A stretch of DNA of 21,531 bases from IMG/VR virus record IMGVR_UViG_2698536335_000017; one strand, 5' to 3'. Shown here in pieces: positions 1 to 21,531 of the stretch. A program made the position numbers and the translations under genes. Origin of the DNA: a virus (taxonomy: Duplodnaviria > Heunggongvirae > Uroviricota > Caudoviricetes). The notes under the pieces were generated by a model. It had not been told where the DNA came from, did no database searches, and was given only the letters and a program-made list of their open reading frames with translations. Positions within the stretch are counted from its first letter, which is position 1. The number at the start of each line of letters is the position of its first letter.

Positions 1-1284
1 TTACTTCTTCGCCTCTGCAACCACTTTACTACCCACGCCGCGGTTATTGTATTCCCACATGCGGTTGTAGTTAGTGTCATTCAGATTGCGCTGTATTTCG
101 TCGTTATCATCTACGCTGCCGGTATTACCCGCAAACGGACGATTAGAGATCACCGCATCGGCCCACGGTTTAGCCGTGTTAAAACCTTCGTTGATGGCGC
201 TATCACGGATCACCACCTGACCGTTGGTATTGGCATCAACATCCAGCGAGCGGCCCAGTTGCGCCACACCATCACCGAAAGCATTGAAACGGCTGTTTAC
301 GGCGAGGAAACCGTAGTAAATGTTGGACAGCGTAGCCGGTGCAAACACATACGCTTCTTGCTGAGTACGTGAGTTCACCACGCGGAATTCGGTGTTATCG
401 AACACCACTGCGCCGCGACCAGAAACGATATCCACATCCCCTTCAATGTAGCTGTTGGTCACCAGCGTACGCGGCTGACGATTCGTTTCCAGACGGTTCT
501 GCACACCGCTGTTGGTGACAAAGAAGGTGTTCTGACGACCGAGAATGTTAACGTTGTTAATCTGTACCTGGTCACCATCAGTACGCAGTGCCACCGCCGG
601 ATGGTTACCTGCATCTACGCTATCGCCCAGCGTGTTTTCGATGGTCAGATTTTGCAGTTGCAGGCCATTGTTTTGTGACCAGAAGACCGCAGAGCAGAGA
701 ACACCGATACTGTCGCTGCGTTTGCTCTGGCAGCTATCGTACATATACCACGCTGGTTTACCTGGCATATATTTGCCGCGCGGGTTGACGTCGTGACGCC
801 AGTCGGCAGGGCTCATGCCACCATCAAGGGAAAGCCCAATCTTCACATCAATCGGTTTTTCACCTGTACCGTACAGAGTAATTCCACCCGGAGCGGCAGG
901 GACATATACCGTTCCCTGATACTCACCAGGCATCACGGCAATATACTGGCGCTTGTTGGTACGCTTGATAATTGCCGCATCTACCGCCGCCTGAATCGTG
1001 GTATGCGTTACACCTTGAGTGCCCGCCGGGCCGACAACAAAGTCAGGTTGCGCAGGCAGGGTAATCGGGGAAGGATTCCACGCTGCTGCACCTGGTGTCA
1101 GGGATGCAAAATAGTGTTGAGCATCGAAATTCTGCGCTTCTTTTGCCGACAGAATCGGGCGAGAAGAGGTACCAGGCGCGGTTTGATCAGAAGGACGTTG
1201 ATCGGGCGGGGTTGAGCTACAGGCGGTCAGCGTCACGCCAAAAGCCAATGCCAGCGCCAGACGGGAAACTGAAAATGTGTTCAC
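1..1284 (-). CDS. ybhC: Host gene: YbhC-like pectinesterase-family outer-membrane lipoprotein (putative acyl-CoA thioesterase), full length 427 aa
   Basis: Complete ORF with signal peptide and lipobox (LTAC). It lies immediately beside the lambda att core, as ybhC does at attB in E. coli. Identity is from recall of the locus, not a search. Confidence 0.8.
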   Translation of the reverse strand: MNTFSVSRLALALAFGVTLTACSSTPPDQRPSDQTAPGTSSRPILSAKEAQNFDAQHYFASLTPGAAAWNPSPITLPAQPDFVVGPAGTQGVTHTTIQAAVDAAIIKRTNKRQYIAVMPGEYQGTVYVPAAPGGITLYGTGEKPIDVKIGLSLDGGMSPADWRHDVNPRGKYMPGKPAWYMYDSCQSKRSDSIGVLCSAVFWSQNNGLQLQNLTIENTLGDSVDAGNHPAVALRTDGDQVQINNVNILGRQNTFFVTNSGVQNRLETNRQPRTLVTNSYIEGDVDIVSGRGAVVFDNTEFRVVNSRTQQEAYVFAPATLSNIYYGFLAVNSRFNAFGDGVAQLGRSLDVDANTNGQVVIRDSAINEGFNTAKPWADAVISNRPFAGNTGSVDDNDEIQRNLNDTNYNRMWEYNNRGVGSKVVAEAKK

Positions 1285-9496: not shown

Positions 9497-9796
9497 TCAA
9501 ATAAGTGGTTTGCTGCCTAATTTCATTTTCTGGCGACCAACACAAGTCACACCCATTTCACTGCGTGGCTTGCGGTAGTAAATACGGTTCTGTTTACGCT
9601 CTACTTCTTCTGCCTTCTTGCAGCGAAGGCTTCCGAGTGATGCTGCTTTATCTGCTCTGACGCAACCAGAGAGCTTTAGCGCAATTTTTCGCGCCAGTCG
9701 CTGCTCTTGCATTGCCTGTTCACGTTGAGCCTGTCTGCGTGCTCTGCGGCGATTTCTGGCGTTATCGTCAGCCAGATATGTAATGACTACTGTCAT
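9497..9796 (-). CDS. N: Antitermination protein N (99 aa)
   Basis: N-terminal arginine-rich motif NARNRRRARRQAQREQ; C-terminus RIYYRKPRSEMGVTCVGRQKMKLGSKPLI aligns with recalled lambda N. SD GGAGG 5 nt upstream; nutL upstream. Confidence 0.85.
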   Translation of the reverse strand: MTVVITYLADDNARNRRRARRQAQREQAMQEQRLARKIALKLSGCVRADKAASLGSLRCKKAEEVERKQNRIYYRKPRSEMGVTCVGRQKMKLGSKPLI

Positions 9797-12023: not shown

Positions 12024-12668
12024 ATGACATACGAAAATGACAAATTCCAGGTTCTGAAGAGCATGAAGGTGCCAGATGATTTTAAATCAAATGGCTTTGT
12101 TTATGTGCTTTCGAATGAGTGCATGCCAGGAATTTATAAGATTGGGATGACTAAGCATTCACCAGAAGTCAGGGCTAAAGAAATTTCAGCCTCTACTGGC
12201 GTTCCTAAGCCATTTAAGGTGATAGCAGCCTTTCATTCAAATAATCCCGCATCAGATGAAAAACTCATTCATAAAGCCTTTGCAAAAGAGAGGCTTAGTG
12301 ATAATCGAGAGTTTTTCAAGCTTGAAGATAATGATCTTTCTGAATCTCTAAATGAAATAAGGGCGCTGGTTGGCCCTGAAAGAAATGGCGAGACGGCAGA
12401 ATACGCAATTTACGACTCATTCATTTCTTTTCGCCATGAAAATGAGCTTGATCTTAATGAGGAGCTTATAGAGCAAGGTCTGGGTAGTGTAGTTGGTCAT
12501 CTTCCTGCGGTGAAAAATTTCCTTATTCGCGCCGGAATTGATTACGCGAAGCAACTGATAAGCAAATATAACTCATCGATAGTTATTAATACAGATGGCA
12601 GTGTGGTGATGGTTAAGTTTCTTGAAGCCCAATGCTTTGATGCGGAGGTTGGAAATGAGCCTGGCTGA
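12024..12668 (+). CDS. T5orf172 / MUG113-type GIY-YIG-like domain protein (214 aa) inserted between cII and O
   Basis: N-terminal GFVYVLSNECMPGIYKIGMT ... EVRAKEIS ... PFKVIAAFHS ... EKLIHKAFAKERLSDNREFFK fits the T5orf172 pattern. Strong SD AGGAG 5 nt upstream; C-terminal about 90 aa unassigned. Confidence 0.55.
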   Translation: MTYENDKFQVLKSMKVPDDFKSNGFVYVLSNECMPGIYKIGMTKHSPEVRAKEISASTGVPKPFKVIAAFHSNNPASDEKLIHKAFAKERLSDNREFFKLEDNDLSESLNEIRALVGPERNGETAEYAIYDSFISFRHENELDLNEELIEQGLGSVVGHLPAVKNFLIRAGIDYAKQLISKYNSSIVINTDGSVVMVKFLEAQCFDAEVGNEPG

Positions 12669-16384: not shown

Positions 16385-16589
16385 TTACCTGAAATGGTAT
16401 CTCTGCCACCGCTGGCTAATTAAGTTTGCTGTAAAAGACTGGATGACAGCGGATGCCAACAAACTTAAGCAAAGAAAGGACTATTACTACGCCAGAATGA
16501 AGGAAAACTACTGCTCAATTCGCACTCGCATATTTATTAAAAAAGACCTTCAGTCAATTCTTCAATTGCGAGGGAAGGTAAATGGCTAA
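16377..16589 (+). CDS. Small hypothetical nin-region protein (70 aa)
   Basis: ORF overlapping ninF stop and the downstream start. Confidence 0.4.
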   Translation: MSDYLKWYLCHRWLIKFAVKDWMTADANKLKQRKDYYYARMKENYCSIRTRIFIKKDLQSILQLRGKVNG

Positions 16590-16872
16590 CCTACGCAAAG
16601 AAGCGCGCGGCAGAGAATGCCAGGTACGTATTTACGGCGTATGCAATGGCAATCCTGAAACTACAGTTCTGGCACATTACCGGATGGCTGGAATTTGTGG
16701 AACGGGGATGATGCCTGACGACCTGATCGGCGCATGGGCTTGTAGTGACTGCCACGCGGAGATCGACCGACGCACAAGGATTCTCGACAACAAAGACGCC
16801 AGACTTTACCACCTCGAAGGCGTGATCAGGACGCAGGCGATACTGCTGAAGGAGGGGAAGATTAAGTCATGA
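16582..16872 (+). CDS. YbcO-like (DUF1364) Cys-rich nin-region protein (96 aa)
   Basis: ARGRECQVRIYGVCNGNPETTVLAH ... CSDCHAEIDRRT pattern resembles DLP12 YbcO as recalled; sits directly upstream of rusA as in DLP12. Confidence 0.65.
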   Translation: MANLRKEARGRECQVRIYGVCNGNPETTVLAHYRMAGICGTGMMPDDLIGAWACSDCHAEIDRRTRILDNKDARLYHLEGVIRTQAILLKEGKIKS

Positions 16873-17231
16873 ACGAATATCAGTTTGTGCTTCCATACCC
16901 GCCGTCGGTGAATACCTACTGGCGAAGACGGGGAAGCCAATACTACATCAGCGATAAAGGCCAGAAATACCGAAAAGACGTTCAGCAAATCATCCACCAA
17001 CTCAAGTTAGATATTTTCACCAAATCACGACTCCGCATCAAAGTAATCGCAGACGTTCCAGACTCCCGCCGCCGCGACCTAGATAACATCCTGAAGGGTT
17101 TACTCGACTCCCTTATCCATGCCGGATTTGCGGAAGACGACGAGCAATTCGATGACATTCGCGTAATTCGTGGTGTGAAAGTACCAGGCGGACGGCTTGG
17201 AATAAAAATCACCGAACTGGAGAACGCATGA
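16869..17231 (+). CDS. rusA: RusA-family Holliday junction resolvase (120 aa)
   Basis: LPYPPSVNTYWRRRG ... PDSRRRDLDNILKGLLDSLIHAGF ... DDEQFDDIRVIRGVKVPGGRLGIKITE aligns with E. coli RusA including the catalytic Asp-rich core. Confidence 0.85.
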   Translation: MNEYQFVLPYPPSVNTYWRRRGSQYYISDKGQKYRKDVQQIIHQLKLDIFTKSRLRIKVIADVPDSRRRDLDNILKGLLDSLIHAGFAEDDEQFDDIRVIRGVKVPGGRLGIKITELENA

Positions 17232-17416
17232 ACGCCACAATTCAAACGATACCAGAGCTTCTTATCCAGACACGAGGCAATCAGACCGAAGTGGCGAGGA
17301 TGCTTTCCTGCGCAAGAGGAACAGTGCTCAAGTACAACCGAGACAGCAAAGGCGAGCGTCATGTAATAGTTAACGGCGTCCTGATGGTCAAACAGGGCAA
17401 GAGGGGAAGACGATGA
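17228..17416 (+). CDS. Small nin-region protein (62 aa), last gene before the moron
   Basis: ATGA overlap with rusA; no family recognised. Confidence 0.45.
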   Translation: MNATIQTIPELLIQTRGNQTEVARMLSCARGTVLKYNRDSKGERHVIVNGVLMVKQGKRGRR

Positions 17417-17544
17417 GACTCGAAAGCGTAGCTAAATTTCATTCGCCAAAAAGCCCGATGATGAGCGACTCACTACTGGCCACAGTTTATTGGTTTTCGT
17501 AACTGAGTCATTTTATTATTTTATTGCAACTTTTAATCTTTTAT

Positions 17545-17596
17545 AGTGCGAAATAAATGGAGCTGGCATTCATTTCGCACTTTATGTTTTTGTTGG
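17545..17596 (+). terminator. Terminator-like hairpin with long loop plus T-rich tail
   Basis: Perfect 10-bp inverted repeat AGTGCGAAAT ... ATTTCGCACT (17-nt loop) followed by TTATGTTTTTGTTGG. Confidence 0.35.
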
Positions 17597-17627
17597 ACTT
17601 ATGTTATTTTGATTGAATTCAATTCAG

Positions 17628-18587
17628 TTAAAAAAAGAAGGTGATTGCTCCATTTATAAATGAATAGTCATCCCCTGTCTTGAATTCTGATGTTACTTTA
17701 TTAAATGCTAGTGTGAAGGCTACAGGTGCATACCCAATTGTTGCGCCAACTTGATATTCATCAACAGTTTTGTTTAGCGATACTGTTGTTTGTTTCGTCT
17801 GTATTGTTTTTCCTTCGAGAGTATAGTTGCGATTGACATCTCGTCTTTCCATACCTGCAAAAATCTTGTATTTGAATCCGCTTGTATCGGACATATGCAT
17901 TAAACCACGGGGAGCCAGCAGACCAAAGCCATTATCCGAATTGAAGGTTTTATCATTACCAATGGCAATGGTTGCGCCATATGCTACATATTGAAATAAG
18001 TTTCCAGTAACAGCAGAAACTTCAGGGTATAATCCAACATTAGCACCTAAAATATCCATACTTGGTGTCATGGATAGCATCCCTTTTACAGTATAACCGT
18101 AGCGATTCTCTATTTGATCATCCCATGCATGATATTTTTCTGCCCCAATAATCTCATGAGCTTTATTTTGTACTTTCTGACCGCCTGCGTCGGGGCCAAC
18201 AACACCTATGTCAGTACCTAATCGATAGCGAATCCAGTCATTCGCAAGGGAGTTCCATTCAATACCAGTGTGAGTGTATGCACTAAAAGCTCTGTCTCCA
18301 GTTACAGCTGTGTTGTGTCTTTTATTACTGCCTGATGGAGAGTAAATATCTTGCGCAATATGGAGAGATAATTGGCTCGAGTCTGAGATATCGTGGCTAT
18401 ATCCCAGAAATAAGCCTTGTGAGTAATCATCTCTGTTTTCATGTTTATTGCCATAAATATCATTAAGTATTGGTTGAAACTTCCCTGCATCATCATTTGC
18501 TAATGATAATGCAAGGCTGTTCGCGATAGCTGAACACGTGGTAAATGACAGAGCAATAAAGACGCCAGCGATGACACTTTTTTTCAT
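17628..18587 (-). CDS. lpxR: Outer-membrane beta-barrel protein, probably LpxR-family lipid A 3'-O-deacylase (319 aa), prophage moron
   Basis: Signal peptide, C-terminal aromatic residues, alternating beta-strand pattern. Length equals Salmonella LpxR as recalled, and the predicted mature N-terminus NSLALSLAND puts Asn9-Asp10 where LpxR has catalytic N9/D10. Opposite strand, AT-rich flanks. Confidence 0.5.
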   Translation of the reverse strand: MKKSVIAGVFIALSFTTCSAIANSLALSLANDDAGKFQPILNDIYGNKHENRDDYSQGLFLGYSHDISDSSQLSLHIAQDIYSPSGSNKRHNTAVTGDRAFSAYTHTGIEWNSLANDWIRYRLGTDIGVVGPDAGGQKVQNKAHEIIGAEKYHAWDDQIENRYGYTVKGMLSMTPSMDILGANVGLYPEVSAVTGNLFQYVAYGATIAIGNDKTFNSDNGFGLLAPRGLMHMSDTSGFKYKIFAGMERRDVNRNYTLEGKTIQTKQTTVSLNKTVDEYQVGATIGYAPVAFTLAFNKVTSEFKTGDDYSFINGAITFFF

Positions 18588-18978
18588 ATGTTATTGTCTT
18601 CCTTTTTTTTGAATGGTGCGCGTATTTTACATACATGAGTTTGTAATACAAGGTGCGTAATCAATATGATGTTTTATAATTGCGTGAGACAATTGATTTA
18701 TTCGTTTTTTATTGTGGTTTTTATTATCTTTTAATGTAACGGTGTTTTTATTAAGTGTGTTTGCGTGGTGTTTTATGTTTTTTATAATTTTTATTTTATT
18801 AAATTTAAAAGTATTAGTAATGGCTATTCTATATAGCAATATAAGAACTGTTACAAAAAAAGGGGGGGCAATTACAGGTAGTTATGGATGATGAGTGAAA
18901 CAGATATTGGAGAACCGGGGAATGAATGATGTCTGAGTCTTATATATCAGAACTCCTTCGCTGTCGCTGGGGGCTCCT

Positions 18979-19752
18979 GTGCTTATGTCGTTTCCCCGAT
19001 TCGGTTTTGAACGATTACCGAATGTTGAAGAATTATGCCAAAATATAGAAAGGATTTACTGCATGAATACCCAATATTTACAGTATGTTCGTGAGCAACT
19101 TATGGCAGCTACTGCTGACTTGAACGGAGCAACGAAAGGCCAGCTCGAAGCCTGGCAGGAGCATGCACAATTTGATACTGGTACATACAAACGAAAGAAG
19201 CCGCGCATTCTGGATGTGGTAACTGGCAAGATGATTACGCTGGATAATACGCCGACTTCCGGTAAGCAGTCGTACGCAAAAGGTTCATCCATTGCTTTGG
19301 TCAGCCCGGTTGAATTCTCAACCTCTTCATGGCGCCGCGCGGTTTTGTCTCTCGATGAACATCAGAAAGCATGGTTGCTTTGGTGTTACAGCGAAAGCGT
19401 TCGATGGGGGCATCAGGTCACCATAACGCAATGGGCATGGAGCGAGTTTAAAGATTTGTTAAGTAACAGAAAAATTGCAGGTAAGACACTGGATCGCCTG
19501 AAGACGTTAATCTGGCTGGCTGCACAGGATGTGAAGAGCGAACTTGCAGGGCGTGAGGCCTATGAATACCAGACACTGGCATCATTGGTGGGAGTGACAA
19601 CAAAAAACTGGTCCGAGACATTTACTGAACGCTGGGTTGCAATGAAGCACATTTTTCTACAGCTTGATAGTGATGCTTTATTGCTTGTGACGAGAACACG
19701 TTCAAAACAAAAGGCAGCATTTTTACAGCAAAATATTGCAAAACTGGATTAA
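18979..19752 (+). CDS. Q: Late-gene antiterminator Q, large phage-82-like type (257 aa)
   Basis: Last gene of the early-right operon, immediately followed by a consensus-like promoter and a short terminated transcript (pR'/tR' arrangement). Start ambiguous (GTG 18979, ATG 18985 or ATG 19063). Family call is mainly by position and length. Confidence 0.6.
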   Translation: MLMSFPRFGFERLPNVEELCQNIERIYCMNTQYLQYVREQLMAATADLNGATKGQLEAWQEHAQFDTGTYKRKKPRILDVVTGKMITLDNTPTSGKQSYAKGSSIALVSPVEFSTSSWRRAVLSLDEHQKAWLLWCYSESVRWGHQVTITQWAWSEFKDLLSNRKIAGKTLDRLKTLIWLAAQDVKSELAGREAYEYQTLASLVGVTTKNWSETFTERWVAMKHIFLQLDSDALLLVTRTRSKQKAAFLQQNIAKLD

Positions 19753-19764
19753 AAGCCATATACT
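19736..19764 (+). promoter_or_regulatory. Late promoter pR' (-35 TTGCAA, 17-bp spacer, -10 TATACT)
   Basis: Near-consensus sigma70 hexamers with ideal spacing; the -35 overlaps the last Q codons as in lambdoid phages. Confidence 0.7.
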
Positions 19765-19797
19765 TCATGCAAATTTGGTATGTTGTAAAAAATGTAT

Positions 19798-19824
19798 AAA
19801 CCCGCTGCCGAGTGGGTTTTTTTT
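19798..19824 (+). terminator. tR' intrinsic terminator, closing a roughly 55-nt pR' leader transcript
   Basis: Hairpin ACCCGC-TGCCGA-GTGGGT followed by eight T residues, about 30 nt downstream of the predicted start. Confidence 0.7.
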
Positions 19825-19921
19825 ATGCCCTGAGTTGTACTTGTACGGTAAACATGCTGGCTGCTATGTAATAGAGTTTTTTTAGCCTGTAACCTCTTGA
19901 CGGCATTGAATTGCTTTTGTT

Positions 19922-20680
19922 ATGAGTTGTAAGCCAATGTTATCATCTTGTATTGGGGTGGTTATGAAGGATGGTGCGCTGCTCAGGAGTTCTTCACTTT
20001 TTATTGCCTACATGGGATGCCTTGGATGGGGGAGTGCTTATTTCTATGGATGGGGTACTTCTTTTTACTACGGCTTCCCATGGTGGATTGTAGGTGCAGG
20101 TGTTGATGATGTTGCCAGAAGTTTATTTTTTGCAGTTATCGTCATTGCTATATTTCTTATCGGTTGGGGTATTGGTGTTGTATTCTTTTTCGCAGTGAAA
20201 AGAAAACATTCTATGCAAGAGCTAAATGTATTTCGCCTTTATTTTGCTGTGGAATTATTGTTTGTGCCGGCAATTATTGAGTTTTCTATATTGAGACAGA
20301 AGATTCAGGTACCTCTTTTGCTACTGTCAGCAGCGATTGCGCTGGCGGTTACAATTTCGATAAGATCTTATGGGCGATTTTTATCGGTATCATGCTTCTA
20401 TGATAAGCCATTTATAAAAAAACATTTTTTTGAGATTGTGATGATTGCTTTTGTGGCATATTTCTGGCTTTTTTCATTTCTGACAGGATATTACAAACCA
20501 CAGTTTAAGAAAGAATATGAAATGATTAATTATAATGATGGTTGGTATTATGTTCTTGCTCGTTATGATAATTGTCTGGTTTTGTCTACTTCTTTCAATG
20601 CAGGTAGTAAAAGGTTTGTCATTTATCAATCAGCACAAGATAAGAATCTTCAGGTTGATATTGTAAGGACCAGAATTTAA
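19922..20680 (+). CDS. Multi-pass inner-membrane protein of unknown function (252 aa), moron at the stx-equivalent locus
   Basis: Four to five hydrophobic helices rich in aromatic residues and a soluble C-terminal tail of about 60 aa; low GC. Alternative starts at 19937 and 19964 (GGTGG 4 nt upstream). Confidence 0.55.
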   Translation: MSCKPMLSSCIGVVMKDGALLRSSSLFIAYMGCLGWGSAYFYGWGTSFYYGFPWWIVGAGVDDVARSLFFAVIVIAIFLIGWGIGVVFFFAVKRKHSMQELNVFRLYFAVELLFVPAIIEFSILRQKIQVPLLLLSAAIALAVTISIRSYGRFLSVSCFYDKPFIKKHFFEIVMIAFVAYFWLFSFLTGYYKPQFKKEYEMINYNDGWYYVLARYDNCLVLSTSFNAGSKRFVIYQSAQDKNLQVDIVRTRI

Positions 20681-20813
20681 TTGGCTGCATAAATAATATT
20701 TTAAGTTGCAAGTTGGCTATTCGTAGGAATAGAACCTTAGGCATGCTGAATGCGTTTTCTGAACATTGTTTTATAAACTGTGTCTGCTTGCTGTTGTGAT
20801 CCTGTTTTTAGTG

Positions 20814-20924
20814 ATGGTGATGATGGATTTCACCAGCAGGATAATGTTGGTACTGACTGATGGCGCTCTGGTCTGCGGCATTGTGGTATTGCTGTGGCCG
20901 ATGATGAAAGAACAGAATGAATAA
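20814..20924 (+). CDS. Possible small hydrophobic peptide (36 aa), hand-translated
   Basis: Translation MVMMDFTSRIMLVLTDGALVCGIVVLLWPMMKEQNE; no clear SD, so this may not be translated. Confidence 0.2.
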   Translation: MVMMDFTSRIMLVLTDGALVCGIVVLLWPMMKEQNE

Positions 20925-21109
20925 TTCTTGACTTTTTTGTTTACTGTTTATTAAAAAATCAACCGCATGGTGAATCCTCCTTGGAGGGGCTAAATGATCG
21001 AGTTTTAAGGGCACGTAGCGAGTTCTGTTTGATCATTGCAGAACTTAGCGGGAGGCGCCATGCGTACATCACTAGTGTTATTCCTTTTATCATTTTCCTT
21101 GTGAGTTCT

Positions 21110-21136
21110 GGCTGCGCATTGCGCAGCCTTTTTTTT
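21110..21136 (+). terminator. Strong intrinsic terminator upstream of the nanS-p-like gene
   Basis: Perfect 8-bp GC-rich stem GGCTGCGC / GCGCAGCC with 3-nt loop, followed by eight T residues. Confidence 0.75.
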
Positions 21137-21222
21137 ATGACCTGCCACTGGCAGATGGTCATCCTGTGATTTGATTCCGCTTCCGGCTTTTTAACTCTGT
21201 TCCTCTACACGGGAGAAATTCG

Positions 21223-21531
21223 ATGTCGATTAAACATTACGATGTTGTCAGGGCGGCGTCGCCGTCAGACCTTGCGGAAAAGCTGACACACAAACTGAAA
21301 GAGGGCTGGCAGCCATACGGCGGACCGGTTGCCATTACGCCGTACACACTGATGCAGGCGGTGGCTATTGAAGGAGAGCCACAGGTCGGCCCTTCATCTG
21401 AGCCGGATTGGTACTACGTCATCGTACTGGCCGGGCAGTCCAATGCCATGGCTTACGGTGAAGGGCTTCCGCTGCCGGATTCATACGATGCTCCGGATCC
21501 GCGCATTAAACAGCTGGCGCGCCGCAGTACA
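21223..21531 (+). CDS. 5' part of a nanS-p-like gene (DUF1737 N-terminal domain then SGNH/sialate O-acetylesterase-like domain), truncated by the window edge
   Basis: SD GGGAGA 6 nt upstream of ATG. N-terminus MSIKHYDVVRAASPSDLAEKLTHKLKEGWQPYGGPVAITPYTLMQAVAIEG is DUF1737-like, followed by VIVLAGQSNAMAYGEG (SGNH block I GQSN). Open to the window end. Confidence 0.6.
   Translation, partial: MSIKHYDVVRAASPSDLAEKLTHKLKEGWQPYGGPVAITPYTLMQAVAIEGEPQVGPSSEPDWYYVIVLAGQSNAMAYGEGLPLPDSYDAPDPRIKQLARRST

Follow-up and report, generated by a model that had tools for sequence, protein, structure and literature searches.

Introduction

The bor and lom genes of phage lambda are lambdoid morons, outer-membrane genes that are active in the repressed prophage. 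The lpxR gene described here resembles them in being a single outer-membrane-protein gene with a candidate promoter of its own, deviant composition and expression in the lysogen, set between conserved modules; unlike them, it encodes an enzyme, lies on the opposite strand upstream of Q, and is wired to the LEE regulators of the host. Another outer-membrane beta-barrel enzyme, the lipid A 3-O-deacylase PagL, removes an acyl chain from lipid A and lowers TLR4 stimulation. PagL belongs to a family other than that of LpxR, relies on a Ser-His-Glu triad without Ca2+, and removes the chain at position 3, not 3'; we saw no relationship in sequence between PagL and the LpxR of this study.

In three later papers, the 3'-O-deacylase activity of the identical protein of Escherichia coli O157 Sakai is credited to Ogawa 2018, as are its control by Ler and Pch and the resulting dampening of innate immunity (PMC6393859, PMC7649339, PMC9263587); two of them likewise attribute reduced phagocytosis to LpxR and describe it as dependent on both regulators (PMC6393859, citing Ogawa 2018; PMC7649339). 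That lpxR is a prophage gene, reversed between the nin genes and Q in EHEC and EPEC prophages and in phage 434, is already known. Since the identical gene is established in O157 Sakai, EDL933 and E2348/69 and annotated in 434, the window analysed here (the whole stretch of 21,531 nucleotides of the Caudoviricetes record IMGVR_UViG_2698536335_000017) represents one more carrier and not new biology. What we add are the exact boundaries of the cassette, together with a lambda-type Q gene remnant; a hairpin at the 3' end of lpxR that is terminator-like on the plus strand; and the recognition of the cassette, Q and the small RNA gene PasD2 as a linked unit, within which RNA-RNA contacts to lpxR have been published.

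The window encodes LpxR with its active-site residues

A first-pass annotation of the window had described an antisense gene for a 319-residue outer-membrane beta-barrel protein and had likened it to LpxR. Both descriptions were borne out by the open reading frame and its alignments.

17628..18587, minus strand: lpxR coding sequence, precursor of an outer-membrane lipid A 3'-O-deacylase (319 aa, ATG start; ORF call, Pfam, 3FID alignment)
18522..18587, minus strand: predicted lpxR signal peptide codons, residues 1-22 (MKKSVIAGVFIALSFTTCSAIA, then N; 3FID alignment and A-x-A motif)

Residues 10-318 of the product matched positions 2-320 of the 323 positions of the Pfam profile PF09982 (LpxR) with a score of 137.4 bits (cut-off 26, E 6.8e-40). 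Residues 24-319 paired with residues 2-296, i.e. the whole mature chain, of 3FID, the crystal structure of Salmonella Typhimurium LpxR, a protein of the same family, fold and length (E 3.6e-153; 220/296 identical residues, or 74%; one 1-residue gap). By inspection, the N-terminus opens with MKK, runs through a hydrophobic core and ends in A-I-A before N, the end coinciding exactly with the start of the mature 3FID chain, which suggests that the signal peptide is cleaved after residue 22 and that residue 23 of the precursor would be residue 1 of the mature protein. Because precursor residue 24 pairs with residue 2 of the mature 3FID chain, the Asn9-Asp10 pair that had been noted at the mature N-terminus is indeed present, at precursor positions 31 and 32. 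The C-terminus, also by inspection, reads ...ITFFF, its terminal Phe being that of an outer-membrane beta-signal.

Comparison with 3FID showed that N9, D10, D11, K67, R68, Q118, H122, E128, K129 and Y130 are kept. In terms of the roles assigned to LpxR residues (PMC6260217), these comprise the catalytic His122, Glu128 and Lys129 (H144, E150 and K151 of the precursor), the Kdo-binding Lys67 and Arg68 (K89 and R90), and, in the Ca2+ site, N31, D32 and D33 of the precursor. The one departure is at position 34, which is Thr in the Salmonella protein and Ser (S56) here, a conservative change that retains the hydroxyl. Ser34 and Thr34 had both been listed as catalytic residues in the first-pass annotation; Thr is correct for Salmonella and Ser for the present protein, the two being a single residue. 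In simulations T34A still bound Ca2+, and residue 34 was suggested to be dispensable for Ca2+ binding (PMC6260217); the EHEC protein, which has the identical sequence and thus Ser at this position, is reported to be active. Taken together, these sequence comparisons support the identification of the gene as lpxR and of its product as a probable lipid A 3'-O-deacylase.

Older annotations name ECs0814 and E2348C_0684 'SfpA-like protein', and in the membrane the Salmonella enzyme is mostly latent (PMC6260217), such that the product might be regarded as a porin or other non-enzymatic outer-membrane protein (an 'SfpA-like systemic factor protein'), or as an inactive relic of LpxR. We consider this extremely improbable given the full-length identity to the crystallised enzyme and retention of its active-site residues, the intact reading frame, 100% conserved over hundreds of genomes, and the activity reported for the identical EHEC protein (PMC6393859, PMC7649339).

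Boundaries and composition of the lpxR cassette

The window carries a lambdoid prophage integrated adjoining ybhC and possessing an N-like antiterminator, cI, cro, cII, O and P, with lpxR located between ninH and the late-gene antiterminator Q. In agreement with the earlier reading of a moron between the nin genes and Q, YbcO, RusA and NinH are encoded upstream and Q downstream, all on the plus strand.

17413..17502, plus strand: lambda-type Q gene remnant, a 29-codon ORF (MRLESVAKFHSPKSPMMSDS...) overlapping the ninH stop (lambda Q alignment)
18588..18916, no strand assigned: AT-rich (28% GC) lpxR 5' region, shared divergently with ylcG-Q (composition)
18929..19048, plus strand: ylcG-family small ORF, 39 aa (annotation in identical loci; phage 82 alignment; translation)
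19063..19752, plus strand: 82-type late-gene antiterminator Q, 229 aa (Pfam Phage_antiter_Q, E 1.7e-91; MNTQYLQ... start)

Neither end first proposed for the island (17417 and 18978) was retained. On the left, the stretch from 17413 to ~17483 is not island DNA but the 5' end (61-71 nt) of a lambda-type Q gene, the first 61 nt and first 20 aa of the remnant being identical to lambda Q. RefSeq and the 434 record label it an incomplete antitermination protein, and it is found in all 53 of the 53 IMG/VR loci with this lpxR allele. The left junction of the cassette is placed where the lambda Q homology ends, at ~17473-17483; homology to lambdoid phages lacking lpxR (HK620, N7, HK633 and others) ends at 17483. 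On the right, position 18979 is where ORF calling mechanically set a GTG start, over-extending the frame to 257 aa; the Q start annotated in O26, 434, DEC9B, Sakai and E2348/69 is 19063, with ylcG in between. Homology to the rus-orf45-Q region of phage 82 resumes at 18917, which sets the right junction. Thus, the remnant at the left and the phage 82 homology at the right delimit an lpxR-specific cassette spanning ~17484..18916. In related phages devoid of the insert, ninH leads directly to Q (HK620, N7 and others) or the arrangement is rus-orf45-Q (phage 82).

The cassette has a GC content of 35.6%, with values of 0.394 for the lpxR coding sequence (GC3 0.30), 0.28 for 18588..18916 and 0.278 for the 3' flank (17484..17627); the neighbouring nin region and ylcG+Q stand at 0.478 and 0.455, respectively. 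The very AT-rich flank reported earlier for 18590..18900 was confirmed (GC 0.272 for 18600..18900), and the AT skew flips sign across the island, as expected for an opposite-strand gene. The two hallmarks of a moron, foreign base composition and insertion between modules that are contiguous in relatives, are both present. A search of the cassette ends for direct or inverted repeats, as signs of a mobile element, yielded only short AT-rich matches at chance level. From its exact boundaries and the lambda-Q remnant, the cassette seems to have arisen in one ancestral recombination event and to have spread afterwards. We are highly confident that the island, acquired horizontally, is a moron, a cassette for lysogenic conversion that carries lpxR and works along the lines proposed below.

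Distribution of the cassette and its closest relatives

Among 5426 complete E. coli genomes, 620 contain lpxR with a nucleotide identity of at least 99%, as do 53 contigs of IMG/VR. Its product is 100% identical to Sakai ECs_0814 (prophage Sp3), annotated as lpxR, to E2348C_0684 (prophage PP2 of E2348/69), to the LpxR of phage 434 and to WP_000750155.1 (O26, E2348/69), and has the same sequence as the EDL933 protein (CP-933K region). Sakai, EDL933 and E2348/69 carry the same succession of lambda-Q remnant, lpxR, AT-rich region, ylcG and 82-type Q, with 99.4-99.5% nucleotide identity, and Sp3 occupies the same integration site adjoining ybhC as the prophage of the window. Upstream of the cassette, ninH-rusA is present in the window and in E2348/69, in contrast to ninI/pphA in Sakai and 434. 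Elsewhere the prophage is a mosaic unlike those of Sakai, EDL933 and E2348/69, and coverage of the window by any one complete genome of the collection does not exceed 60%.

In phage 434, the corresponding gene is CPT_434_65, annotated as an 'outer membrane beta-barrel lipid A deacylase' (OL657226, OL657227). It has the same orientation and nin-Q position, and nucleotide identity reaches 99.6% over 17402..21531; 434 is, however, a viable free phage and not an integrated prophage, and its Q remnant is preceded by ninI instead of ninH. The cassette and the Q gene occur together in nearly all loci.

Scanning contigs with a single protein recovered only one relative, a Citrobacter gene that is chromosomal, located between a purB-like gene and phoPQ and not phage-borne; the exact-peptide patterns used were too narrow to recover Salmonella. 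A 71%-identical homologue adjoins tail-fibre genes in two loci (L060, L061), a second classic moron slot, which suggests repeated capture by phages.

Candidate promoters and expression of lpxR

Candidate expression signals were located in the AT-rich region upstream of lpxR.

18598..18602, minus strand: putative lpxR ribosome-binding site GGAAG (read from sequence)
18624..18651, minus strand: candidate proximal lpxR promoter (TTGTAT, 16-nt spacer, TAAAAT; read from sequence; block kept in divergent alleles)
18826..18854, minus strand: distal lpxR promoter-like site (GTAACA, 17-nt spacer, TAGAAT; consensus match only; kept in divergent alleles)
18641..18670, plus strand: promoter-like site toward ylcG-Q (TTGTAA, 18-nt spacer, TATGAT), back to back with the lpxR candidate (consensus scan)

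The ~85 nt upstream of the lpxR ATG are near-invariant in loci L057 and L058, the remainder of the region being only 83-84% identical. Promoter-like sites as a class are not in excess in the AT-rich region, with 7 found against 9.0 +/- 3.1 expected from shuffled sequences. In published RNA-seq of an EPEC lysogen with a 99.5%-identical locus, lpxR had a baseMean of 2936, as opposed to 0.4-1.8 for the nin genes E2348C_0679-0682, which supports the expression of lpxR from the repressed prophage.

Ler activates the identical EPEC gene 21-35-fold (PMC3891560), lpxR is part of the LEE/Ler modulon (PMC9263587), and in EDL933 an LmvR ChIP peak has its summit 68 bp upstream of the lpxR start (PMC10128022). 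Across strains, lpxR is strongly associated with the LEE (PMC6724679). The AT-rich 18588..18916 region is presumably where H-NS silences the gene and where Ler, Pch and LmvR act; a literature search for a direct link between H-NS and lpxR found none.

This pattern of expression bears on whether the cassette mainly benefits the phage, rather than bacterial virulence, through a remodelled outer membrane that would alter adsorption, superinfection, vesicle release or lysis efficiency. The presence of lpxR in 434, a free-living laboratory phage (from sewage, 1950s), and not only in prophages of pathogens, would fit such a role, as would the homologue lying by tail-fibre genes. Lipid A acyl chains, on the other hand, are buried and are not known to serve as phage receptors. 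Expression of lpxR goes with the LEE virulence regulon and with repression of the prophage rather than with induction, the strain-level association with the LEE is strong, and a search for data in support of a phage benefit found none. We thus regard a primarily phage-directed function as improbable, and retain lysogenic conversion of the bacterial host as the preferred reading.

Reported small RNA contacts of the lpxR mRNA

Downstream of Q, the window contains the gene of the Hfq-dependent small RNA PasD2. Over 98% of the occurrences of this gene are in linkage with the lpxR-Q module.

20965..21136, plus strand: PasD2 Hfq-dependent sRNA gene, 100% identical to PasD2 of E2348/69 (sequence match)
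18406..18433, minus strand: PasD2 site in the lpxR mRNA, GAGAUGAUUA-CUCACAAG-GCUUAUUUCU (EPEC RIL-seq, PMC8550237 supplement; exact sequence in the window)
17836..17870, minus strand: MgrR site in the lpxR mRNA (EPEC RIL-seq, PMC8550237 supplement; exact sequence in the window)

EPEC RIL-seq yielded chimeras of the lpxR mRNA with both PasD2 and MgrR (PMC8550237). In addition, plus-strand RNA from 18731..18753 (coordinates mapped onto the window) was caught on Hfq with MgrR in the EPEC lysogen. The predicted PasD2-lpxR duplex energy of -25.6 kcal/mol did not stand out from that of shuffled sequences (-24.0 +/- 2.6 kcal/mol; 26/100 shuffles as good), and the interaction therefore rests on the published chimeras and on a 10-nt perfect complement. 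MicF, reported to regulate lpxR in Salmonella, was also considered; its best pairing with the present mRNA (-17.3 kcal/mol, against -15.6 +/- 2.0 kcal/mol for shuffles) was not distinctive. An Rfam scan of the whole window at the gathering threshold returned nothing, and at E<=5 the 17300..20100 interval gave only a sub-threshold STnc240-like match in the pR'/terminator region (19759..19828; 28 bits, cut-off 55).

Proposed working of lpxR and its antisense placement

Rightward transcripts entering the cassette would first meet an inverted repeat.

17544..17580, no strand assigned: hairpin (inverted repeat I2), ~45 nt downstream of the lpxR stop codon (inverted-repeat search and folding)

On the minus strand, the RNA forms a 15-bp stem that is not followed by a U-run (-20.3 kcal/mol, z -4.5). 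In the plus-strand RNA (-16.4 kcal/mol, z -3.0), UUUAUGUUUUUGUU comes after the stem, and the hairpin resembles a terminator of rightward transcription out of the nin region.

We propose that LpxR, carrying a 22-residue signal peptide, would be inserted in the outer membrane as a beta-barrel and cleave lipid A at its 3'-acyloxyacyl ester by a Ca2+-dependent hydrolysis resembling that of phospholipase A2, with His122 activating water, Asn9, Asp10 and Ser34 (Thr in Salmonella) holding the ester-polarising Ca2+, and Lys67 and Arg68 holding the Kdo sugars. The under-acylated lipid A would be a weaker stimulus of innate immunity, and LpxR, by lowering lipid A acylation, would therefore help attaching-and-effacing E. 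coli evade TLR4-driven inflammation and phagocytosis. The gene's own promoter would lie within the 28%-GC upstream region and be active in the repressed prophage, where the nin genes are silent; Ler and Pch would switch lpxR on together with the LEE, Ler presumably by relieving H-NS silencing, and the mRNA would also be contacted by MgrR and by PasD2, whose gene lies at a distance of 2.4 kb in this prophage. Because lpxR points against the early-right operon, N-antiterminated transcription reaching Q after induction would cross the gene antisense, past the terminator-like hairpin at its 3' end. This crossing would most likely shut lpxR off in lytic growth, with Q expression still possible.

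The transcriptional conflict suggested in the first-pass annotation is read from this antisense geometry and may or may not operate; the layout is no barrier to lytic growth, since the plaque-forming phage 434 has the identical arrangement. The placement could nonetheless be functional, with convergent transcription or an H-NS filament braking or timing Q, or with an internal plus-strand promoter from which Q, the late region and PasD2 would be expressed in response to Ler and independently of pR, thereby coupling host virulence regulation to late functions. Q showed Ler activation at late log phase (PMC3891560), although the effect was small (2-fold) and came from a microarray without stated strand specificity. 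In the lysogen, Q (E2348C_0685) had a baseMean of 69 as opposed to ~1 for the nin genes. Rightward transcripts must cross the cassette and its plus-strand hairpin, the intergenic plus-strand RNA was captured with MgrR, and the cassette travels with Q. Yet the plus-strand promoter-like site at 18641..18670, which might drive such transcripts, is not above chance, and N-type antitermination normally overrides terminators and roadblocks. Moreover, 434 grows lytically with an identical cassette, and many carriers are defective, e.g. Sp3, in which the integrase, bet and portal genes are pseudogenised. On balance, we find a functional role of the placement doubtful, and keep to an lpxR moron that is simply crossed by N-antiterminated transcription.

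Equally tentative, and in our judgement unlikely, is an extension in which the cassette would act as a regulatory node before Q. Here, Ler, Pch, H-NS and LmvR, acting through the AT-rich divergent promoter region, would drive both lpxR leftward and pR-independent ylcG-Q rightward, the lpxR mRNA would be under feedback from PasD2 and from MgrR, which PhoPQ controls, and N-mediated read-through would silence lpxR on induction. Were this true, the LEE would share its regulation with both the late-region output of the prophage and the remodelling of lipid A. Apart from its regulation, LpxR has been explored as a vaccine antigen (PMC9629502).

The antisense gene is lpxR

An ORF was called on the minus strand as follows:

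17628..18587, minus strand: lpxR, 319 aa

The Pfam LpxR match spans the full length of its product (137 bits; cut-off, 26), and alignment to the crystal-structure sequence of Salmonella LpxR (3FID; E 3.6e-153) yielded 220 identical residues out of 296 with a single one-residue gap. The residues called catalytic, Ca2+-binding or Kdo-binding in PMC6260217 were inspected in this alignment and are numbered here as in mature Salmonella LpxR. N9, D10, D11, K67, R68, Q118, H122, E128, K129 and Y130 were all kept, and T34 was replaced by a Ser with retention of the hydroxyl group. The N-terminus of the protein reads MKKSVIAGVFIALSFTTCSAIA followed by N, the end of MKKSVIAGVFIALSFTTCSAIA coinciding exactly with the start of the mature chain, and the C-terminal residue is the Phe typical of outer-membrane barrels. 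The first-pass annotation, which had pointed to Asn9-Asp10 and suggested the alignment to the Salmonella enzyme with its catalytic residues, was correct in its assignment to LpxR, as borne out by the Pfam score, the 3FID alignment and the identity to a named EHEC gene.

This gene is ECs_0814 of EHEC O157:H7 Sakai (100% protein identity), annotated 'lpxR, lipid A 3'-O-deacylase' and located in prophage Sp3 adjoining ybhC. The identical protein is found as WP_000750155.1 in O26:H11 11368, DEC9B and EPEC E2348/69, and as CPT_434_65 in phage 434. At the nucleotide level, 620 of 5426 complete E. coli genomes carried lpxR at 99% identity or more, O157, O26, O145, O111 and O103 among them, and this allele was present in 53 IMG/VR contigs; among 50,697 phage records, a relative was encoded only in the two 434 records. 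Since the gene is the prophage-borne lpxR characterized earlier in EHEC and EPEC, the finding is already known. According to PMC6393859 and PMC7649339, which relay Ogawa 2018, EHEC LpxR has 3'-O-deacylase activity, reduces phagocytosis and requires Pch and Ler. The gene is a member of the LEE/Ler modulon (PMC9263587), is activated 21-35-fold by Ler in its identical EPEC form (PMC3891560) and co-occurs with the LEE across strains (PMC6724679); an LmvR ChIP peak lies 68 bp upstream of its start (PMC10128022), and LpxR has been tried as a vaccine antigen (PMC9629502).

More divergent homologues occupy other contexts. A Citrobacter homologue (L006 3995-4960; 73% amino acid identity) is chromosomal and lies between phoPQ and a purB-like gene that is accompanied by a histidine phosphatase; that of two IMG/VR contigs (L060 and L061, 835-1794; 71% amino acid identity) adjoins prophage tail-fibre genes and IS fragments; and an E. 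coli plasmid allele (L064 3501-4460; 83% nucleotide identity) lies among IS remnants on a 101-kb plasmid. LpxR genes have thus been mobilized more than once.

Setting and boundaries of the cassette

The plus-strand genes flanking lpxR are those of YbcO, RusA and NinH on one side and the Q antiterminator on the other (Pfam), and the remainder of the window is a lambdoid prophage with integrase, Erf-type recombinase, cI-type repressor, cro, cII, and O- and DnaC-like replication genes. This setting bears out the earlier placement of the gene between nin and Q and antisense to the early-right operon. The description of very AT-rich flanks also holds, the GC content being 28% upstream (18588..18916) and 27.8% in the 3' flank (17484..17627), against 39.4% in the CDS (GC3, 30%), 47.8% in the nin region and 45.5% in ylcG plus Q. 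Features of the setting are:

1-1284, minus strand: host gene ybhC, within which the window begins, with the prophage integrase next (part of 1-2489)
9497..9796, minus strand: N-like antiterminator
17413-17502, plus strand: remnant of a lambda-type Q gene, 29 codons, translationally coupled to ninH
18929..19048, plus strand: ylcG-family ORF
19063, plus strand: position corresponding to the annotated start of the 82-type Q

This prophage and Sakai Sp3 share the ybhC insertion site. Among the complete E. coli genomes searched, none accounts for more than 60% of the window, and the prophage is therefore a different mosaic. Between cII and the O-like gene, a 214-aa ORF (12024-12668, plus strand) matching only PHROG families without assigned function may be another accessory gene of the early-right operon.

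On the left, homology to lpxR-less lambdoid phages (HK620, N7, HK633 and others) continues through ninH and ends at 17483; on the right, homology to phage 82 (rus-orf45-Q) starts at 18917, just ahead of the ylcG-family ORF, which delimits the lpxR-specific DNA to ~17484..18916. The Q remnant is identical to lambda Q over its first 61 nt and first 20 codons, similarity being gone by ~nt 71, and is a fossil of the recombination that delivered the lpxR/82-type-Q module. Remnant, 3' flank, lpxR, 5' region and ylcG co-occur in all 53 IMG/VR loci with this allele; the left neighbours vary (rusA-ninH or others) and the right-hand Q is sometimes different or missing. These patterns fit one ancestral illegitimate event inside a Q gene, followed by spread via recombination in flanking conserved phage modules. 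A search for transposon-like repeats at the cassette flanks found none.

Candidate regulatory elements and transcription toward Q

Inverted-repeat, folding and consensus scans, together with inspection of the sequence, placed the following elements around lpxR:

17544..17580, both strands assessed: hairpin, ~45 nt past the lpxR stop codon
18651..18624, minus strand: candidate lpxR promoter (TTGTAT, 16-nt spacer, TAAAAT)
18854..18826, minus strand: distal promoter-like site
18641..18670, plus strand: divergent promoter-like site

The candidate lpxR promoter lies inside a near-invariant block of ~85 nt ahead of the ATG, which also holds a GGAAG ribosome-binding site and is kept in L057 and L058, two loci with divergent lpxR alleles whose upstream region is otherwise 83-84% identical. 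Promoter-like sites in the region were not enriched over shuffles, so that all promoter assignments are candidates only. On the lpxR transcript, the hairpin has a 15-bp stem (-20.3 kcal/mol, z -4.5) that no U-run follows; read on the plus strand, the stem precedes UUUAUGUUUUUGUU and so resembles an intrinsic terminator that would act on rightward transcripts.

As proposed in the first-pass annotation, read-through toward Q must cross lpxR; the geometry is real, an N-like antiterminator is present, and rightward transcripts would traverse both lpxR in antisense and the hairpin to reach Q. Phage 434, a plaque former, has this cassette at the equivalent position, indicating that the cassette does not prevent Q expression. 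The likeliest consequence of the layout would be loss of lpxR expression in the lytic phase. It appears unlikely that the cassette acts as a timer or roadblock, or that a promoter inside it drives Q in response to Ler; Q is 2-fold up with Ler (PMC3891560). The position of lpxR and its neighbours (the AT-rich divergent region, Q and the sRNA gene PasD2) might together form a functional regulatory unit. Just after Q, a promoter-like TTGCAA, 17-nt spacer and TATACT precede a strong terminator (19798-19819) with a U-run; this segment (19736-19828, plus strand) is the expected pR'/Q-utilisation region. It also gave a sub-threshold Rfam STnc240 match (28 bits; cut-off, 55).

Expression and small-RNA data from EPEC

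Because 16582..21531 is 99.5% identical, without gaps, to prophage PP2 of E2348/69, published EPEC data carry over to the window. In RNA-seq of the EPEC lysogen under activating conditions, baseMean values were 0.4-1.8 for the nin genes (E2348C_0679-0682), 136 for E2348C_0683, 2936 for lpxR, 69 for Q and 11017 for PasD2, supporting moron-type expression of lpxR from a repressed prophage. The same values suggest that transcription continues beyond the hairpin at 17544..17580 at a level of a few per cent. E2348C_0683, named as the downstream neighbour of lpxR in PMC3891560, is co-activated 3-4-fold by Ler. An ORF of 126 aa (16982-17362, minus strand), antisense to rusA and ninH and directly downstream of lpxR, may correspond to this old locus tag, in which case its signal is probably lpxR read-through and not that of a real gene.

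In EPEC RIL-seq, the lpxR CDS was partnered with PasD2 and MgrR (PMC8550237), and the sites within lpxR are found exactly in the window at 18406..18433 and 17836..17870 (minus strand). Under conditions in which the nin genes were silent, plus-strand RNA from the AT-rich interval between lpxR and Q was captured on Hfq in chimeras with MgrR. This RNA maps to 18731-18781, the exact site in the window being 18747..18781 (plus strand), and hints at a pR-independent transcript toward ylcG-Q; a promoter-like site lies at 18641-18670. Duplex-energy tests of PasD2 and MicF pairing with lpxR did not separate them from shuffled controls. The sRNA gene itself was located downstream of a DUF3927 ORF (20766-20924):

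20965..21136, plus strand: PasD2, Hfq-dependent sRNA gene, 100% identical to that of E2348/69

LpxR and Q lie no more than 10 kb from >98% of PasD genes (2026 preprint).
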